Shown in pieces: positions 1,644 through 7,877 of a stretch of DNA of 64,000 bases. The translations under genes were made by a program, and so were the position numbers. Within the stretch, counting starts at the first letter, position 1; each line of letters begins with the position of its first letter. Source of the stretch: Bryobacterales bacterium (GTDB lineage: Bacteria; Acidobacteriota; Terriglobia; Bryobacterales; UBA6623); assembly GCA_965216545.1 (NCBI GenBank), contig OZ244172.1, positions 3,654,763-3,718,762 of the forward strand. Reading direction: 5' to 3'. The notes beneath the pieces were generated by a model. That model worked only from the letters and a program-made list of their open reading frames with translations, made no database searches and had not been told where the DNA came from.

Positions 1644-2333
1644 ATGGCCGCCTCCGCCAAGCTTCAACAGCTCGAGACTTTGCTCCGCCAGCGCGGGCTT
1701 GGGCGTGCTTTGCCGACGGCGGACAAGCCTGTGTACAAGCCGCTGCCGACCGGCAGAGCGGAGGTCGACCGCCGTCTGGGCGGCGGGTTGCCGCGCGGGG
1801 CGATCAGCGAAGTTGTTGGCCCGGAGTCGTCGGGGCGGACGTCATTGTTGTTCTCGGCGCTAGCCCGGGCGACGCAAGCGGGTGAGGTGGCGGCTTACAT
1901 TGACGCGACCGATTGTTTGGATCCGCGCTCGGCGGAGCAGGCTGGCATCGTGCTGGAGCGGTTGCTGTGGGTGCGCTGCGACTCGCGGGAGAGGCCGCGC
2001 TACGAGCGCCTGCGCGAGCAGCCGGCGGATCAGGCTTGGCAGGCGGTGAACCTAGTCGCGGCGGCGGGCGGCTTCGGGCTGATCGTAGCAGACTTGGGCG
2101 GGCTCTCCCGCCGCAAGCTCGGCGAATGGCAGCGCCGGCCGTGGGTGCGGCTCAGGCAAGCGATCGAGCATACCGCGACCGCGCTGACGGTGCTGGCGGA
2201 GCGGCACGTGGCGCAGGGCGCGGCCACGTTCGGCCTAGGAGGGACAAGGGACGGTTTGGGGACAAGGGACAGGGGTTTGGGGACAAGGGACCGGGGACAA
2301 GGGATAAGAGGACGGTTGTTGGAGGTGGCCTGA
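1644..2333 (+). CDS. imuA: ImuA, RecA-like protein of the imuA-imuB-dnaE2 mutagenesis cassette
   Basis: Degenerate RecA Walker-A-like motif GPESSGRTSLL and synteny with imuB and dnaE2. The C-terminal ~30 aa (GTRDGLGTRDRGLGTRDRGQG...) are encoded by the heptamer array, so the native C-terminus may have been altered. Confidence 0.8.
   Translation: MAASAKLQQLETLLRQRGLGRALPTADKPVYKPLPTGRAEVDRRLGGGLPRGAISEVVGPESSGRTSLLFSALARATQAGEVAAYIDATDCLDPRSAEQAGIVLERLLWVRCDSRERPRYERLREQPADQAWQAVNLVAAAGGFGLIVADLGGLSRRKLGEWQRRPWVRLRQAIEHTATALTVLAERHVAQGAATFGLGGTRDGLGTRDRGLGTRDRGQGIRGRLLEVA
2241..2307 (+). repeat. G-rich heptanucleotide tandem array L1 (GGGACAA family)
   Basis: Seven phased units at 2259-2307: GGGACAA GGGACAG GGGTTTG GGGACAA GGGACCG GGGACAA GGGATAA. 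Two further units lie at 2241-2254 and a stray GACAAGGGA at 2342-2350. The array sits in the imuA 3' end. Confidence 0.9.
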
Positions 2334-2749
2334 TGCTTAGAGACAAGGGACGAGGAGCAGGAGCAGGGGAGAAGGTTCGGAGCTACCGGGATCTCAAGGT
2401 TTGGCAGAGGGCGATGGATTTGGTGGAGCAGAGCTATCGCTTGGCGGCAATGCTGCCCTCACACGAGCTGTATGGATTGGCAACCCAGATTCGCCGTGCT
2501 GCTGTTTCCGTTCCCGCCAACATTGCGGAGGGGAACGGACGCGAGCACGTTGGCGACTACCTGCATCACGTCTCCATCGCTCATGGCTCGCTCATGGAGT
2601 TGGAAACACATTTCCTCATTGCGATTCGTCTTACGTACCTCCAGCCTGATCAAATTGAGCCGGCTTTCGAATTGACTACCGAAGTCGGCCGCATGCTAGG
2701 TGGTCTTCGTAAGAGTCTGAAGACGAAACGAAGCTCCAGGGGGAGGTAG
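2333..2749 (+). CDS. four-helix-bundle protein, 23S rRNA intervening-sequence / Avd family (TIGR02436, PF05635-like), copy 1
   Basis: Family-typical sequence SYRDLKVWQRAMDLV...QIRRAAVSVPANIAEGNGR...GSLMELETH. The ATG overlaps the imuA stop (TGATG) and GGAGG lies at 2321-2325. It corresponds to the C-terminal 138 aa of track ORF 1913..2749. Confidence 0.85.
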   Translation: MLRDKGRGAGAGEKVRSYRDLKVWQRAMDLVEQSYRLAAMLPSHELYGLATQIRRAAVSVPANIAEGNGREHVGDYLHHVSIAHGSLMELETHFLIAIRLTYLQPDQIEPAFELTTEVGRMLGGLRKSLKTKRSSRGR

Positions 2750-2754
2750 CTTCC

Positions 2755-2783
2755 TTGTCCCTTGTCCCCGGTCCCTTGTCCCC
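2755..2783 (-). repeat. C-rich heptamer array R1, inverted copy of L1
   Basis: Four phased units TTGTCCC TTGTCCC CGGTCCC TTGTCCC. Positions 2758-2783 are the exact 26-nt reverse complement of 2279-2304. Confidence 0.9.
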
Positions 2784-4296
2784 AGAGGGACCCTTGCCGC
2801 TCTTTGCAGCTTTGTATGTCGCTGACTTCGCTGTTGCAGCGTTGATCCGCGGCGAAGCGTACAGCCCCGCTACCGGGGTGATCGAGGGCGAGCCGCCCAA
2901 TCAGTTCGTCTGTACGGCCGATGAGGCGGCCCGCGCCGGCGGCGTACAGATCGGCATGCCGCTGGCCGCGGCCACCGCACGTTTCGCCTATGTCACTCGG
3001 GGCGAGGATCTGCGCATCCTCGAGCGCGACCCGGCGGCCGAAGCCCGCGCGCAGCGTGACTTATTGCGAGCAGCCGAAAACGCCACCCCACGCTATGAGG
3101 ATTCCGCGCTGGGGCTGGCGACGCTCGACTTCAGCGGATTGCGTGAGCCGCATGTGGCGGCGCGCAAACTTTATACAGAGGCGGAGGCGCTGGGGTTCAC
3201 GCCTCAGCTTGGGGTTTCGCGCAACCGCTTCGTCGCATTATGCGCCGCGCGCACACAGCCAGGATTGACGCATGTCTACCCCGGAGAAGAGGCAGGCTTT
3301 CTCTCGGTCCAGGGGCTCGACGTGCTGCCAATGGAAGCAGCCGAGATCGAAACGCTCGCACGCTGGGGCGTCCGCACGGTCGGCGAGCTGGCGCGCTTCA
3401 GCGAGAACGACCTGACAGCGCGCTTCGGCGAACGCGGCGCGCGGTTGGCGCGACTGGCGCGTGGCGAAGAAGCGTCGGTGATTGAGGCCTACACCGCGCC
3501 GCTCGAGCTCGAGGAGCGCCAGGAGTTCGACTGGGAAGTCGGAGAGCTCGAGCCGTTGGCGTTTGCGCTCTCGGGGATGCTCGAGCGGCTGTGCTTGAAG
3601 CTGCAGGGTCACAACTTGGCGGCGGCGCGCGTGGAGACCAAGCTCGAGCTTGCGAGCGGGCGGTTGTTCGCTCGCAAGATCGATTTGCCGTATCCGCTGA
3701 CCGACCCGCGCACGCTGCTCAGACTGGTGCGGCTCGATCTCGATGCGCATCCCCCAGGCGACGCCATCGTGGCCGCCCGCGTCGCCGCCGCGCCCACCGA
3801 GCGGCGTCGCGTGCAGTTCTCGCTCTTCGCGCCTGCCGCGCCGAGCCCGGAGAAGCTGGCTGTGACGCTGGCGCGCCTCTCGGGCCTGGTGGGCGCCGAG
3901 CGCGTGGGCGCTCCGGTCGCGCCGGACACGCACAAGCCGGGAGCGGCGGCGTTGGCGCTGTTCGCACCATCGCAAAGGGACAAGGGACAAGGGACAAAGG
4001 GACAAGGGACAGGGGACAAGAGAGGCGGCTCGCGTGAAGAACGCATCTTCCGCGTCTTCCGTCCGCCCTGGCGCGCCAAGGTCGAGACCCAAGCGCACGA
4101 GCCGGCGCATCTGGAGTCGCTCGATGTCGCCGGCCCCATCGAATCCAGCTCCGGCCCCTGGCGTGTTTCCGGCGAGTGGTGGAGCCCGGAGGGCTGGCAA
4201 TACGAGGAATGGGATGTGCTGGTGCAGGGGCGTATGTATCGGGCTTGCTTTGATCGGTTGAGCCGGGAGTGGTTTGTCACGGGGGCGTACGATTAG
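2755..4296 (+). CDS. imuB: ImuB, Y-family-polymerase-like protein
   Basis: N-terminus LFAALYVADFAVAALIR, typical size, and position between imuA and dnaE2. The TTG start at 2755 lies inside the repeat (GGAGG at 2740-2744). An alternative TTG at 2794 would give MPLFAALYV. Confidence 0.8.
   Translation: MSLVPGPLSPEGPLPLFAALYVADFAVAALIRGEAYSPATGVIEGEPPNQFVCTADEAARAGGVQIGMPLAAATARFAYVTRGEDLRILERDPAAEARAQRDLLRAAENATPRYEDSALGLATLDFSGLREPHVAARKLYTEAEALGFTPQLGVSRNRFVALCAARTQPGLTHVYPGEEAGFLSVQGLDVLPMEAAEIETLARWGVRTVGELARFSENDLTARFGERGARLARLARGEEASVIEAYTAPLELEERQEFDWEVGELEPLAFALSGMLERLCLKLQGHNLAAARVETKLELASGRLFARKIDLPYPLTDPRTLLRLVRLDLDAHPPGDAIVAARVAAAPTERRRVQFSLFAPAAPSPEKLAVTLARLSGLVGAERVGAPVAPDTHKPGAAALALFAPSQRDKGQGTKGQGTGDKRGGSREERIFRVFRPPWRAKVETQAHEPAHLESLDVAGPIESSSGPWRVSGEWWSPEGWQYEEWDVLVQGRMYRACFDRLSREWFVTGAYD
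3977..4019 (+). repeat. GGGACAA heptamer array inside imuB (third copy of family 1)
   Basis: Six GGGACAA-type heptamers in tandem (five GGGACAA, one GGGACAG, with one extra A after the third unit), translated in frame as QRDKGQGTKGQGTGDKRG. Positions 3977-3992 are the exact complement of 2753-2768. Confidence 0.9.
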
Positions 4297-4298
4297 CG

Positions 4299-4347
4299 GG
4301 TGCTGGGGGCTAGGTGTTAGGTGCTAGGTGCTAGGTGCTAGGTGCTG
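4299..4347 (+). repeat. G-rich heptanucleotide tandem array L2 (GGTGCTA family)
   Basis: Seven phased units: GGTGCTG GGGGCTA GGTGTTA GGTGCTA GGTGCTA GGTGCTA GGTGCTG. The array starts 3 nt after the imuB stop. Confidence 0.9.
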
Positions 4348-4373
4348 GGCGTTGGCTGATACGGAGGATTGAA

Positions 4374-4724
4374 ATGATTCGGAGTTATCGCGATCTTCAT
4401 GTTTGGCAGCGGGGGATGGATCTTGTTCTTTGCTGCTACGGCTTAGCCAAGAAGCTTCCAAGCGATGAGCTTTACGGATTGACGAGTCAGATTCGCAGAG
4501 CCGCCGTTGCTATACCTGCCAACATCGCCGAGGGGCACGGCAGAGACCACATCGGCGACTACCTGCGCCATCTCTCGATCGCCTCTGGATCGCTCACAGA
4601 GCTGGAAACCCACATCCTGATCACCGAAAGACTCTCGGCTATCTCTCTGAAGCCGACACTTCGATCTTTCATACCCAAGCCACTGAGCTGGGCCGCATGC
4701 TCTCCACTCTGTCAAAGAAGTTGA
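4374..4724 (+). CDS. four-helix-bundle protein, IVS/Avd family, copy 2 (C-terminus disrupted by an apparent +2 frameshift)
   Basis: MIRSYRDLHVWQRGMDLV...QIRRAAVAIPANIAEGHGR...GSLTELETH, with GGAGGA at 4363-4368. After ...ITERL (4634) the family-like sequence GYLSEADTSIFHTQATELGRMLSTLSKKLKARR continues in another frame, 4637-4756. Confidence 0.8.
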   Translation: MIRSYRDLHVWQRGMDLVLCCYGLAKKLPSDELYGLTSQIRRAAVAIPANIAEGHGRDHIGDYLRHLSIASGSLTELETHILITERLSAISLKPTLRSFIPKPLSWAACSPLCQRS

Positions 4725-4746
4725 AGGCCCGAAGAACCTCTTCCCC

Positions 4747-4781
4747 CAGCACCTGACACCTAACACCCAGCACCTAGCACC
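4747..4781 (-). repeat. C-rich heptamer array R2, inverted copy of L2
   Basis: Five phased units CAGCACC TGACACC TAACACC CAGCACC TAGCACC. Positions 4766-4781 are the exact complement of 4334-4349. The array ends 6 nt before the dnaE2 ATG. Confidence 0.9.
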
Positions 4782-4787
4782 ATTTAA

Positions 4788-7700
4788 ATGACCGAAATCC
4801 ACGCAGCCTCCGGTTTCAGCTTCCTCGAAGGCGCCTCCGACCCCGAGGACCTCGTCGCCGAAGCCAAGCGCCTCGAATACGAAGCCGTCGCGCTTTGCGA
4901 TCGCGACTCCGTCTCCGGCGCGCCGCGCTTCTTCAAAGCCGCCAAGCAAGCGCGCATCAAAGCGTTGGTCGGCGCCGAAATCTCGCTCGACCAACCGGGC
5001 GTCAAAAAGGGCGTCCGCAACGCCGAGCTCGACCGCCGCCTCACCGTGCTGGTCGAGAACCGCCGCGGCTACCAGAACCTCTGTCGCCTGCTCACGCGCA
5101 TGAACCTGCGCGCCCCCAAGGGCGAAGGGCGCGTCACTTGGGACGACCTCGACGACTTCTCCTCCGGCCTCGTCGCCCTACTGCACGACCTGCGCGACGA
5201 GGACCCAGTACGCGGCATCTTCGGCTCGCGCAACGTCTACGTCGAGCTGCAACGCCACATGCGCCGCGAGCAGGAGCGCGACAACCAGGCGCGCATCGAG
5301 CTCGCTCGCCGCTACGGGCTGCCGCTGGTCGCCTCGAACGGCGTGCGCTACGCCACCGAGGCGCGCAAGCCGCTCTACGACGTCTTCACCTGCCTGCGCT
5401 ACAAGCGCAAGCTCGATACTGTCGGCCGCTTGCTCGACGCGAACGCCGAGCGCTACCTCAAGCCGCAACGGTCTCTCGAGTATCTCTTCCGCGATCTGCC
5501 CGAAGCGCTCGCCAATGCGAGTGAGCTTGGGCGCCGGCTCGACTTCACGCTCGGCAATCTCGGATACGAGTTCCCGAAGTATCCGTTGCCGCCCGGCGAG
5601 ACAAATACCTCGTTCCTGCGCAAGATCGCCCTGCGCGGCGCCGCCGAACGCTACCGCGATTCGCCACATCGCGAGAAGGCTCTGCGGCAGATCGACCACG
5701 AGCTCGCCGTCATCGAGCGACTCAACCTCGAAGGCTATTTCCTGATCGTGTGGGACATCGTCGAGTTCGCGCGCAAGAACGGCATTCTGTGCCAAGGCCG
5801 CGGCTCGGCGGCGAACTCGGCCGTATGCTACTCCTGCGGCATCACCGCCGTCGACCCGGTCGGCATGGAGCTGCTCTTCGAGAGGTTTCTCTCCGAGGAG
5901 CGCGGCGAGTGGCCCGACATCGACGTCGACTTGCCCTCGGGCGACCAGCGCGAGCAGGTGATCCAACACGTCTACCGCCGCTACGGCGAGCGTGGCGCCG
6001 GCATGACGGCCAACGTCATCACCTACCGCGGCAAGATGGCCGTGCGCGAGGCGGGCAAGGTGCTGGGCTTTCCGGAGGAGATGATTGCGCGCCTGTCGAA
6101 GTGTATCCACAGCTTCGAGTACACCGACGACAATGACAAGCTCGTCTCGCAGGCCGTCGCCGCCGGCTTCGACGCTTCGCACCCGCGCGTCGGCCACCTG
6201 TTGCGCACTTGCATGCAGATGCAGGGGCTGCCGCGGCACCTGGGCCAGCACTCGGGCGGAATGGTGATCTGCCAGGGCGATCTCGACGCCGTCGTGCCGC
6301 TCGAGAATGCGTCGATGCCCGGCCGCGTCGTCGTGCAGTGGGACAAGGAGGACTGCGCTGACCTCGGCGTCATCAAGGTCGACTTGCTCGGCCTCGGCAT
6401 GATGGCGGCGCTCGAGGAGAGCGTCGAGACCATCCGTTCGCGGGGCGGAGACTTCGACTTGGCGCGCATCCCGCCCGATGATCCCGCGACTTACCAGATG
6501 ATCCAGAAGGCGGACACGGTCGGCGTGTTCCAGATCGAGAGCCGCGCGCAAATGGCGACGCTGCCACGCATGCGGCCGGATCATTTCTACGATCTGGTCG
6601 TAGAGGTGGCCATCATCCGCCCCGGGCCGATCACGGGCAACATGGTGCACCCGTATCTGGCGCGGCGGCAGGGCAGGGAGCCGGTGACCTATCCGCACCC
6701 CTCGCTCGAGCCGGTGTTGAAGCGCACGCTCGGGGTGCCGCTGTTCCAGGAGCAGTTGTTGCGCGTGGCTATGGTGGCGGCGAACTTTACCGGCGGCGAG
6801 GCCGAAGAGCTGCGCCGGGCGATGGGCTTCAAGCGCTCGGTCGAGCGCATGGGCTCGATCGAGCGCAAGCTCCGTGAGGGCTTGGCCGAGAACGGCATCG
6901 AGGGCGAGGCGGCGGAGCAGATCGTACGCTCGATTACTTCGTTCGCACTGTATGGATTTCCGGAGTCGCACGCGGCGAGCTTCGCTTTGCTCGCCTACGC
7001 GAGCTCCTATTTGAAGTGCCACTACCCGGCGGAGTTTCTGACAGCGTTGCTCAACTGCCAGCCGATGGGCTTCTACTCGCCGGCCGTGCTCGTCAGAGAT
7101 GCGCAGCGGCACGGCGTGCGGGTGCGGCCGATCGACGTGGCGTTGTCAGGGGCTAGGTGTCAGGTGCTGGGCGCTGGGGAGATGCGGTTGGGGTTGCGGT
7201 TTGTCTCGGGGCTCAGGGCGGAGGCGGCGGAGCGCATTGTGGGGCTGCGGCCGTATCGCTCGATGGAAGACTTCGTGCGACGGACGCGCTTGGCGAAGAC
7301 GGAGCTGGACGTGCTGGCGGAGATTGGGGCGCTGAACTCGCTAGGAGAAGGCGTCCACCGGCGCGAGGCGTTGTGGCAGATCGAGAGGGCGTATCGCCCG
7401 GCGGGGCCGCTGTTCGAGTCCCAAGACGACCGGCTGCCCGAGCCGGGGCCGCTGGCCAAGATGATGCCGCTCGAGCGGCTCGACGCCGACTATCGCGGGG
7501 CGGGCCTGACGACGGGGCCGCACCCGATGCACTACCTGCGGCCGGCGCTAGCCGATCGCAACGTGCACAGCGCGCGCGACCTCGAGTCGATCGCCCACGG
7601 CCGCCGCGTGCGTGTGGCCGGCGCGGTCATCACGCGGCAGCGACCGGGCACGGCCAAGGGCTTCTGCTTCATCACGTTGGAGGATGAAACTGGAGTTTCG

Positions 7701-7877
7701 AATCTGATTCTCACCCCGGACGTGTTTCAGGAGCACCGGCTGGCCGTGCTGCAGGAGTCGTTCCTGATCGGCGAGGGGTCGCTACAGAAGGTCGACGGCA
7801 CGATCGCGGTGAAGACGGACTTCGTCGAGCCGATGGGGGCGATCGAGCTCGAGATGGAGTCGCATGATTTTCATTAG
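4788..7877 (+). CDS. dnaE2: error-prone DNA polymerase DnaE2 (Pol III alpha-like, ImuC)
   Basis: 1029 aa with an N-terminal PHP domain (HAASGFSFLEGAS) and Pol III alpha core motifs (GRGSAANSAVCY, PDIDVD, GMVI, FQIESR). Lies in synteny after imuA and imuB. Confidence 0.92.
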   Translation: MTEIHAASGFSFLEGASDPEDLVAEAKRLEYEAVALCDRDSVSGAPRFFKAAKQARIKALVGAEISLDQPGVKKGVRNAELDRRLTVLVENRRGYQNLCRLLTRMNLRAPKGEGRVTWDDLDDFSSGLVALLHDLRDEDPVRGIFGSRNVYVELQRHMRREQERDNQARIELARRYGLPLVASNGVRYATEARKPLYDVFTCLRYKRKLDTVGRLLDANAERYLKPQRSLEYLFRDLPEALANASELGRRLDFTLGNLGYEFPKYPLPPGETNTSFLRKIALRGAAERYRDSPHREKALRQIDHELAVIERLNLEGYFLIVWDIVEFARKNGILCQGRGSAANSAVCYSCGITAVDPVGMELLFERFLSEERGEWPDIDVDLPSGDQREQVIQHVYRRYGERGAGMTANVITYRGKMAVREAGKVLGFPEEMIARLSKCIHSFEYTDDNDKLVSQAVAAGFDASHPRVGHLLRTCMQMQGLPRHLGQHSGGMVICQGDLDAVVPLENASMPGRVVVQWDKEDCADLGVIKVDLLGLGMMAALEESVETIRSRGGDFDLARIPPDDPATYQMIQKADTVGVFQIESRAQMATLPRMRPDHFYDLVVEVAIIRPGPITGNMVHPYLARRQGREPVTYPHPSLEPVLKRTLGVPLFQEQLLRVAMVAANFTGGEAEELRRAMGFKRSVERMGSIERKLREGLAENGIEGEAAEQIVRSITSFALYGFPESHAASFALLAYASSYLKCHYPAEFLTALLNCQPMGFYSPAVLVRDAQRHGVRVRPIDVALSGARCQVLGAGEMRLGLRFVSGLRAEAAERIVGLRPYRSMEDFVRRTRLAKTELDVLAEIGALNSLGEGVHRREALWQIERAYRPAGPLFESQDDRLPEPGPLAKMMPLERLDADYRGAGLTTGPHPMHYLRPALADRNVHSARDLESIAHGRRVRVAGAVITRQRPGTAKGFCFITLEDETGVSNLILTPDVFQEHRLAVLQESFLIGEGSLQKVDGTIAVKTDFVEPMGAIELEMESHDFH
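7149..7176 (+). repeat. GGTGCTA-family heptamer array inside dnaE2 (third copy of family 2)
   Basis: Four phased units GGGGCTA GGTGTCA GGTGCTG GGCGCTG, translated as GARCQVLGAG. Positions 7154-7171 are the exact 18-nt complement of 4745-4762. Confidence 0.85.

Follow-up and report, generated by a model that had tools for sequence, protein, structure and literature searches.

Heptanucleotide arrays of heterocystous cyanobacteria were reportedly described by Mazel et al. in 1990. The term used for such arrays is short tandemly repeated repetitive (STRR) sequences (PMC2670836). In the intervening sequence (IVS) of the Coxiella 23S rRNA, two to three tandem GACAGAT units lie upstream of the S23p open reading frame (ORF), their copy number varies between strains, and an RNase III site falls at the first heptamer repeat; IVS excision has been shown only for Coxiella (PMC4990558). 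Here, we analyzed a 64-kb stretch of a Bryobacterales genome (the window), which carries an imuA-imuB-dnaE2 mutasome operon with two cassettes, each consisting of a gene for a four-helix-bundle (4HB) protein between a G-rich left arm and a C-rich right arm of inverted heptamer units. A third array of the repeat of cassette 1, GGGACAA (family 1), stands alone and in frame within imuB at 3977–4019 (the tract). We lean towards the view that this array, of the STRR/IVS type, is a passenger that is translated and tolerated, and that slippage and local gene conversion would have shaped it. In a literature search, arrays of this kind in mutasome genes were undescribed, the only relevant paper being the Coxiella IVS study (PMC4990558), and no described link of STRRs to 4HB genes or mutasome operons was found.

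The heptamer tract in the ImuB hinge

The tract consists of three GGGACAA units, a 1-nt spacer (A at 3998), and then GGGACAA, GGGACAG, and GGGACAA, that is, five perfect units and one variant. The longest perfect run comprises three contiguous units (23 nt, 3975–3997), and Tandem Repeats Finder (TRF) reported period 7, 6.4 copies, and 90% matches for 3975–4020, with the 7-nt units arranged head to tail as in STRRs. An earlier sequence-only reading of this DNA had described a third, same-sense array of six GGGACAA units in frame in imuB. The sequence and the ORF bear this out and six units are present, but the count was slightly generous because one unit is a variant and a spacer interrupts the series.

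When the two-unit pattern GGGACAAGGGACA was searched for with at most one mismatch, the window gave 10 matches, all confined to 2241–2306, 2756–2782, and 3977–4018; the number expected from shuffled sequences was 0.05, and none of 100 shuffles reached 10. The three family-1 arrays span 1.8 kb, no further array was found in the rest of the window, and single isolated GGGACAA heptamers occurred only four times in the other 62 kb. Positions 3977–3992 were confirmed as the exact reverse complement of 2753–2768 (16 nt, with 1208 nt between), as the sequence-only reading had stated, and the tract also takes part in a 25-nt, 92% complementarity with the right arm of cassette 1. Translated in the imuB frame, the tract encodes a peptide of the form ...SQRDKGQGTKGQGTGDKRGG..., and its start corresponds to residue 408 of 513 (from TTG 2755) or about residue 395 of 500 (from the annotated start at 2794).

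The tract has neither a 4HB ORF of its own nor an adjacent inverted partner, so it does not show the anatomy of an IVS-type cassette, and of a palindrome with two inverted arms it holds the G-rich half only. Full or partial palindromes were found at the same ImuB hinge in three other genomes (L037, L041, and L004). GGGACAA yields no stop codon in any of the six frames. We considered and rejected this openness as a mark of a special heptamer; about 50% of heptamers are likewise stop-free in all six frames, and the property is therefore permissive, not explanatory. GGTGCTA, the unit of cassette 2, is not stop-free in all six frames, and intact GGTGCTA arrays stay outside ORFs.

In an alignment of 23 ImuB sequences, the tract fell in a non-conserved block between the invariant segments ...PG-AAA..FAP and R..FR.FRPPW, and an invariant QFSLF, probably the clamp-binding motif of ImuB, was located about 50 residues upstream of the tract. 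An AlphaFold model built on this alignment gave predicted local distance difference test (pLDDT) scores below 50 for ImuB residues 352–425, which cover the tract, and this segment separates a confident Y-family-like body from a beta-rich C-terminal domain (residues 432–512). Measured from the PG anchor to the FRxFRPP anchor, this hinge was 27 to 218 aa long in 101 homologues, and it was crowded with peptides derived from repeats. With its low pLDDT and variable length, the hinge is a permissive site, and the tract is an open-frame insertion in it, in the manner of Rickettsia palindromic elements (RPEs) and miniature transposable elements with inverted repeats (MITEs). The C-terminus of ImuB binds ImuA and DnaE2 in mycobacteria and Myxococcus. 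Since this part is needed for mutasome assembly, the flexible hinge with the tract is upstream of the portion of ImuB on which assembly depends. In another homologue (L029, 5410–7481), the imuB hinge is split by about 2 kb containing an IS110-family transposase gene on the opposite strand; a 4HB cassette interrupting imuB at this hinge was looked for in relatives and not found.

Orthologous hinge arrays and the cassette arms

The closest Bryobacterales clade contained nine ImuB relatives that were 78–85% identical, and the DNA was recovered for seven of them. An array of one to six units directly followed ...LFAP-xx- in 9/9 clade members, in the same phase and in frame. The window has six GGGACAA-type hinge units, and the relatives have six with interruptions (L001), four to five (L162), four (L002), two interleaved with inverted GTCCC (L004), one to two (L163), and one (L164). 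The orthologous hinge lengths (145, 145, 127, 127, 157, 199, and 133 nt) differ by multiples of 3, not of 7. Because L004 is placed at the base of the clade in a neighbour-joining tree, the hinge array dates back to the clade ancestor.

Cassette 1 was present in the window, L001, and L004 and absent from L162, L002, L163, and L164, and the presence of cassette 2 across the relatives followed a different pattern. For the sequence-only reading, the same peptide insert in genomes lacking the cassettes would count as a refutation, and this is what was observed: a DKGQGT-type insert occupied the same junction in all four cassette-less relatives. With four relatives that have the array and lack cassette 1, the array is therefore independent of the cassette. 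Possible remnants of a C-rich arm stand beside the hinge array in L001 (TTGTCTC), L002 (CCCTTGTG), and L004 (GTCCC), and the hinge flank of L001 is equally like the sequence 3′ of the imuA-tail array. A similar decayed array occupied this hinge position in L165 and L166, which belong to a distant ImuB subclade that has no GGGACAA cassette.

A sister clade (L167 and L168; ImuB 61–64% identical) also has a 4HB cassette between imuA and imuB; the L167 copy is intact, that of L168 is degenerate, and the arms are built of GGGACCA, GGGACCG, and GGTGCAA. The hinge of L167 contains GGGGCCA, GGTTCAA, GGGACCG, and GGGACCC, that of L168 contains GGGACCA, and no GGGACAA unit was found in either hinge. The L167 hinge has 16 nt in common with its own left arm compared with 8 nt for the left arms of L001 and L004, and 21 nt of the L001 hinge recur exactly in the left arm of that locus. 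The unit type of the hinge follows that of the cassette arms between clades, and the tract is a third, same-sense member of family 1. To judge from these shared stretches, local copying followed by continuing short-patch exchange among arrays of one family would be the simplest account.

Other repeats were observed at the corresponding places in relatives. A hairpin family resembling repetitive extragenic palindromic (REP) sequences (ACAGAGCC-stem-GTAA-stem-GGTCC or GAGCCGTGACCGTAAGGGAGCGGTC; peptides RAVGVNPRSG or SRDRKGAV) has in-frame insertions in the tail of ImuA, the hinge of ImuB, and a loop of DnaE2, often beside GGGACAA units; its sites are L002 4755–4790 and 6235–6265, L163, L164, L162, L165 5770–5800, and dnaE2 of L030 and L031, and the family is absent from the window. 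In L165 and L166, a CACGGTT heptamer family lies in frame in both ImuA and the ImuB hinge (imuA about 3368–3390 and 3507–3530; imuB hinge 6001–6043), and dnaE2 is broken into several ORFs. Between imuA and imuB, L166 has a 4HB gene remnant of about 15 codons with a GGTGTCA-type array.

Heptamer arrays in mutasome operons and at 4HB genes

Forty-three mutasome loci were picked solely by ImuB homology (the window, L001, L002, L005–L041, and L165–L167), and TRF arrays in 236 kb of operon sequence (imuA-imuB-dnaE2) were compared by period with those in 224 kb of flanks. The operons contained 60 period-7 arrays and the flanks 4, with 19 against 2 for period 14 and 6 against 1 for period 21. Period-7 arrays were thus about 15-fold enriched in this SOS-mutagenesis operon of Acidobacteria, whereas periods 6 (14 in the operon, 15 in the flanks), 9 (24 and 29), and 12 (13 and 20) were unenriched. 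Strong period-7 arrays (at least 3.5 copies) numbered 39 in the operon, distributed across 12 loci, and 1 outside.

Complete in-frame heptamer hairpins, built of about four units, a loop, and about four inverted units, were present in imuA, imuB, and dnaE2 of L037 (a Candidatus Korobacter metagenome-assembled genome, MAG) and L041 (subdivision 13), at the same ImuB hinge and DnaE2 loop as the window arrays. The heptamer differs between the hairpins of L037 (4930–5009, 5297–5367, 6089–6163, 8394–8462, and 8645–8800). Those of L041 (1958–2110, 3393–3545, 3836–4112, and 4975–5137) are nested two-heptamer palindromes of about 150 nt, with one composite element at four or more sites. GGGACAA-like or CACGAAT arrays were also found in DnaE2 loops of L007, L030, and L031. 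Heptamer arrays can reside inside coding sequence.

It is conceivable, although we consider it rather improbable, that STRR/IVS heptamer palindromes, with or without a 4HB gene, form a self-propagating class that prefers the Acidobacteriota mutasome operon, and that the tract is a decayed half of one of them. Such elements may insert in frame at the same few permissive sites, namely, the tail of ImuA, the hinge of ImuB, and two loops of DnaE2. If this is true, the operon bias would reflect RNase III-type brakes selected on mutasome expression, or slippage or template switching linked in cis to the mutasome. A functional bias would amount to a new control layer over the error-prone polymerase system, or a by-product of it, and would provide a testable context for the long-unexplained 4HB "IVS protein" family.

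The anatomy of 4HB cassettes was also compared outside mutasome operons. Tandem heptamer or octamer arrays were found at 6/6 sampled plasmid 4HB genes of cyanobacteria and Gemmatimonadota (Nostoc, Anabaena, Calothrix, Stanieria, and Gemmatirosa), as both arms in five and as the downstream arm alone in one. Each sampled 4HB cassette was built from its own repeat unit, and additional arrays of the same family lay nearby in three of four wider plasmid regions. The polarity was fixed, with the G-rich arm 5′ and the C-rich arm 3′ of the ORF in 9/9 cassettes in which both arms were seen. Because the Coxiella IVS and the sampled 4HB genes share this heptamer-array anatomy, the window cassettes can by analogy be classed as IVS-type elements in an mRNA operon. 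The 4HB/S23p genes of four phyla consistently have tandem-heptamer arms of fixed polarity, which were found documented for the Coxiella IVS only. In one plasmid (L178, Anabaena sp. 90 pANA02, 4632–5474 and 6108–6137), the 4HB cassette has cas6 and cas4 of a type I-D CRISPR operon on its two sides, with a 273-nt GGTGACA/GGGAACA array upstream and CTGTCAC arrays (4.3 copies) on both sides of cas4; the single G-rich arm has two possible partners.

The triplet (GGGACAA)3 occurred in at least 120 metagenome contigs (GC 34–71%), including 13 short inverted pairs, that is, empty hairpins. The idea that GGGACAA arrays are always cassette remnants was rejected because only 1 of the 120 contigs has a 4HB gene nearby. 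In a metagenome contig with 54% GC (L087), a 4HB gene is accompanied by octamer-like arrays of the CATACTAA type (4031–4381 and 4823–4842), and the adjoining gatB contains an in-frame (GGGACAA)3 encoding GDKGQGTRDK.

In the window, the operon (1644–7877) is one co-oriented set of an imuA-like gene, 4HB gene 1, imuB, 4HB gene 2, and dnaE2 (Table 1), and imuA-imuB-dnaE2 synteny was found in at least 40 loci. ImuB was identified by its Y-family polymerase fold and its position between imuA and dnaE2, and the Joint Genome Institute (JGI) names the homologues ImuB. These homologues assign the organism to the Bryobacterales (Acidobacteriota).

Table 1 Coordinates of genes and heptamer arrays of the mutasome operon in the window
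Feature	Position	Strand	Remarks
imuA-like gene (RecA fold)	1644..2333	+	Tail runs through the left arm and ends ...RLLEVA*
Cassette 1 left arm, G-rich	2241..2313	+	GGGACAA/GGGACCG/GGGATAA units; 21-nt higher-order period
4HB gene 1 ("23S rRNA intervening-sequence protein")	2333..2749	+	PF05635 E=1.7e-35; TIGR02436 E=1.5e-34
Cassette 1 right arm, C-rich	2753..2794	+	TTGTCCC units
imuB	2794..4296	+	PF00817 and PF11799 matches; annotated start TTG 2794, 500 aa
Third G-rich heptamer array (solo; the tract)	3977..4019	+	In frame in the ImuB hinge; translated RDKGQGTKGQGTGDK
Cassette 2 left arm	4299..4346	+	GGTGCTA units, directly after the imuB stop codon
4HB gene 2	4374..4724	+	PF05635 profile matched only to position 86 of 106
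Cassette 2 right arm, C-rich	4745..4781	+	Directly before the dnaE2 start codon
Solo family-2-like array in dnaE2 loop	7149..7178	+	GGGGCTA GGTGTCA GGTGCTG GGCGCTG

Both cassettes have the IVS-type anatomy of a PF05635 ORF within long inverted repeats. In cassette 1, positions 2754–2784 are complementary to 2278–2308 at 97%, forming a 31-bp stem. Its left arm, read in frame, encodes the C-terminal tail of ImuA, the ATG of 4HB gene 1 overlaps the imuA stop codon, and additional units of the left-arm type lie at 2339–2356, just within the ORF of 4HB gene 1. The right arm holds in-frame TTG codons at 2755, 2776, and 2794, and the imuB ORF is open from the first of these (513 residues). A GGAGG contributed by the 3′ end of 4HB gene 1 lies 7–8 nt upstream of TTG 2755 and is conserved in L001 and L004. 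Judged from this GGAGG, imuB may start at TTG 2755 with an arm-encoded extension, MSLVPGPLSPEGP, and not at the annotated TTG 2794.

The inverted arms of cassette 2 form a 37-bp stem that is 86% complementary. Its 4HB gene is frameshifted at about 4650–4680, since the profile match ends early and the C-terminal helix (…ELGRMLSTLSKKLKARR…) resumes in another frame; an intact version was found in L001. The array in dnaE2 is same-sense, in frame, and degenerate and encodes GARCQVLGAG. It differs at two positions from the complement of the right arm of cassette 2, compared with three mismatches for the cassette 2 left arm, and its relation to cassette 2 parallels that of the imuB tract to cassette 1. 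At the position of this array, the cassette-less L002 reads GGCGTCA AATGTCA GGTGATC GGTGATC. A GAAC-N7-GAAT sequence at 1623–1637, 7 nt upstream of the imuA ATG, presumably resembles the direct-repeat GAAC-N7-GAAC SOS boxes. Promoter and terminator scans within the operon gave nothing above the shuffled background.

Readings of the tract and comparison with known systems

On the passenger reading, the tract and the G-rich array of the imuA tail, which forms the left arm of cassette 1, would be paralogues in direct repeat. The array was already present in the clade ancestor and would then have been altered by replication slippage and small indels, with only frame-preserving length changes surviving, and short-patch exchange with the neighbouring arms would keep the unit type alike at the three sites within a lineage. 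The disordered hinge that it occupies is the one part of ImuB in which almost any insertion is tolerated, and the tract would survive in coding DNA because GGGACAA is stop-free in six frames and the linker becomes only about 15 residues longer. Slippage and gene conversion are the mechanisms that we infer, and the tract itself would have no dedicated function. Frameshift fragility with loss of the C-terminal domain, G-quadruplex potential, and weak pairing or recombination with the arm 1.2 kb upstream are likely unselected side effects. Taken alone, the tract would be a tolerated low-complexity insert that changes little, and its value is as an entry point to the wider pattern.

Several observations weigh against this account. 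L162 and L002 retain perfect units although their lineages lost the cassette, and this persistence could reflect selection, not recent loss or self-homogenisation. The enrichment of heptamer arrays in the mutasome operon, about 15-fold, makes a purely neutral passenger model insufficient. Layouts of three arrays, with two possible partners for one arm, are also seen repeatedly in unrelated 4HB cassettes and could point to a function for alternative pairing. Within the clade, the nearest match of a hinge array is not always in its own arms: the window hinge shares 20 nt with the left arm of L001 and 17 nt with its own left arm; moreover, the L167 hinge shares 15 nt with the window left arm, because the latter also has GGGACCG units. 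The co-variation of unit type between hinge and arms holds at the clade level only.

Among other explanations, we regard as unlikely a contingency locus, in which slippage would turn the mutasome off and on through an ImuB frameshift before the C-terminal domain. The sequence-only reading had named the tract a potential site of phase variation, and part of this stands: the unit length is not a multiple of 3, the unit number varies among relatives, and a simulated gain or loss of one or two units cut ImuB at 409–416 aa or gave an out-of-frame tail, with only a change of three units keeping the frame. However, the array is interrupted and has three contiguous perfect units where contingency loci have long uninterrupted tracts, the window and its nine orthologues are all in frame, and the hinge lengths do not differ by whole heptamers. 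Two near-identical MAGs, L004 and L169, show three differences over their first ~6 kb, and one of these is a missing C in the hinge repeat (L169 4147 versus L004 6150), which frameshifts the L169 ImuB (P0125) so that the C-terminal domain is lost. This is a 1-nt homopolymer change, and sequencing error is plausible because the same assembly is dense with indels about 2 kb away (6170–7251). It is plausible that the tract is a fragile site for frameshifts. Very unlikely, in our view, is a long-range RNA switch in which the C-rich arm would alternate between the upstream arm, enclosing the 4HB gene, and 3977–4019, enclosing 1.2 kb of imuB, and thereby govern translation of imuB or cutting of the mRNA by RNase III. 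Both complementarities (16 nt exact; 25 nt at 92%) are real, the duplex of the right arm with the third array (−74.6 kcal/mol) exceeds that of shuffles (−39.7 ± 5.5), and when the left arm is barred from pairing, the minimum free energy structure pairs 2753–2794 with 3976–4014. Cassette 2 and dnaE2 show the same layout, one-arm/two-partner layouts recur in Anabaena, Nostoc, and Gemmatirosa cassettes, and RNase III cuts inside the Coxiella IVS heptamer repeats (PMC4990558). Against this, the duplex of the right arm with the left arm is stronger (−91.8 kcal/mol), the partition function for 2200–4100 gave 37.0 expected base pairs between the two arms versus 0.0002 between the right arm and the third array, and keeping the left arm unpaired costs 50 kcal/mol. 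The left arm is also transcribed earlier and lies nearer to the right arm than the third array does. L004 keeps the cassette, yet no more than 10 nt of its hinge repeat match the right-arm complement, and the array persists in four cassette-less relatives. RNA-level selection on the heptamer hairpins was rejected as well: among 16 hairpins and cassettes, the sense strand was more stable in 7 and the antisense strand in 9, with no strand-specific signature. An Rfam search returned no family at E≤1. The alternative pairing of the C-rich arm raised by the sequence-only reading is energetically feasible, but it is nearly absent from the modelled ensemble and near-lost in L004; these models leave a downstream pairing possible and lend it no support as a conserved function.

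A local microsatellite expansion unrelated to the cassette, with a coincidental heptamer match or a generally favoured motif, is distinctly unlikely. The many metagenome contigs with (GGGACAA)3 over a wide GC range, of which a single one is near a 4HB gene, several copies that lie in frame in genes of no relation (for example, gatB in L087), and the decayed hinge array of L165 and L166, which lack a GGGACAA cassette, would all fit it. It does not readily accommodate the presence of three same-family arrays in 1.8 kb, with none in the remaining 62 kb, the joint change of arm and hinge unit type in the sister clade, the 21 nt that the L001 hinge shares exactly with its left arm, or the repetition of the same pattern by the family-2 cassette and dnaE2. 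We also considered a G-quadruplex (G4) element in the mRNA or the non-template DNA that would modulate imuB translation or transcription, and we find it highly improbable. The tract has six G3 runs with 4-nt loops (G3N4 ×6), and the G-quadruplex model of ViennaRNA placed a three-tetrad G4 in it that was 5.7–5.8 kcal/mol more stable than the best G4-free structure; however, heptamer families without G3 occupy the same hinge and loops (AAGTTTC in L037, GGTGCTA-like units in dnaE2, and CACGGTT in L165), and units are freely lost among relatives, down to one in L164. Scarcely credible is diversification in the manner of a diversity-generating retroelement (DGR), in which the in-frame repeat would be rewritten as a variable region by the Avd-like 4HB protein together with a reverse transcriptase from elsewhere in the genome. 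A distant relationship links the 4HB protein to Avd (NCBIfam DivGenRetAVD, E=3.5e-10; Pfam bAvd, E=1.7e-5), an in-frame repeat copy lies in the neighbouring gene, and by inspection the units differ from one another mostly at their A positions. The scores are nevertheless below the curated cut-offs (40.1 bits versus 80 for DivGenRetAVD and 25.7 versus 40 for bAvd), and a YxDD motif scan of the long ORFs of the window, with no profile search, revealed no reverse-transcriptase-like context. Furthermore, the arrays are 7-nt tandem repeats and not a template repeat/variable repeat (TR/VR) pair of about 100 nt, and the target is a hinge, not a ligand-binding fold. The DGR reading was rejected on the missing reverse-transcriptase motif and the low Avd score.

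The tolerated passenger array that we favour has likenesses to several described systems. As in the Coxiella burnetii IVS, the window cassettes have a PF05635 ORF in long inverted repeats with heptamers 5′ of the ORF (PMC4990558), and the tract is made of the same repeat as the arms of cassette 1; the host RNA is an mRNA operon here but 23S rRNA in Coxiella, and the tract is a translated lone half-stem without an ORF or an adjacent partner. With STRRs, the arrays share tandem 7-nt units, several local copies of one unit, and an often inverted arrangement bracketing genes. They differ in that the host belongs to the Acidobacteriota and the tract is translated within a gene, whereas the sampled cyanobacterial arrays are intergenic. 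A unit that is not a multiple of three recalls contingency loci such as the heptanucleotide repeats of Haemophilus influenzae hmw (PMC8262952, PMC12721329), although the known tracts are long and uninterrupted and vary within populations, unlike the three contiguous perfect units of the window. The resemblance to RPEs and MITEs lies in repeat DNA that is in frame at structurally permissive sites and adds a peptide segment (PMC10969869), and full heptamer hairpins occur at the same ImuB hinge in L037 and L041. Rickettsia RPEs, however, have a fixed consensus of about 150 bp (PMC10969869), whereas each element here has its own heptamer, the window has only one half of a palindrome, and a single operon is where the elements concentrate. 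The tract is best read as a variant of the IVS/STRR heptamer arrays and of in-frame repeat elements such as RPEs.

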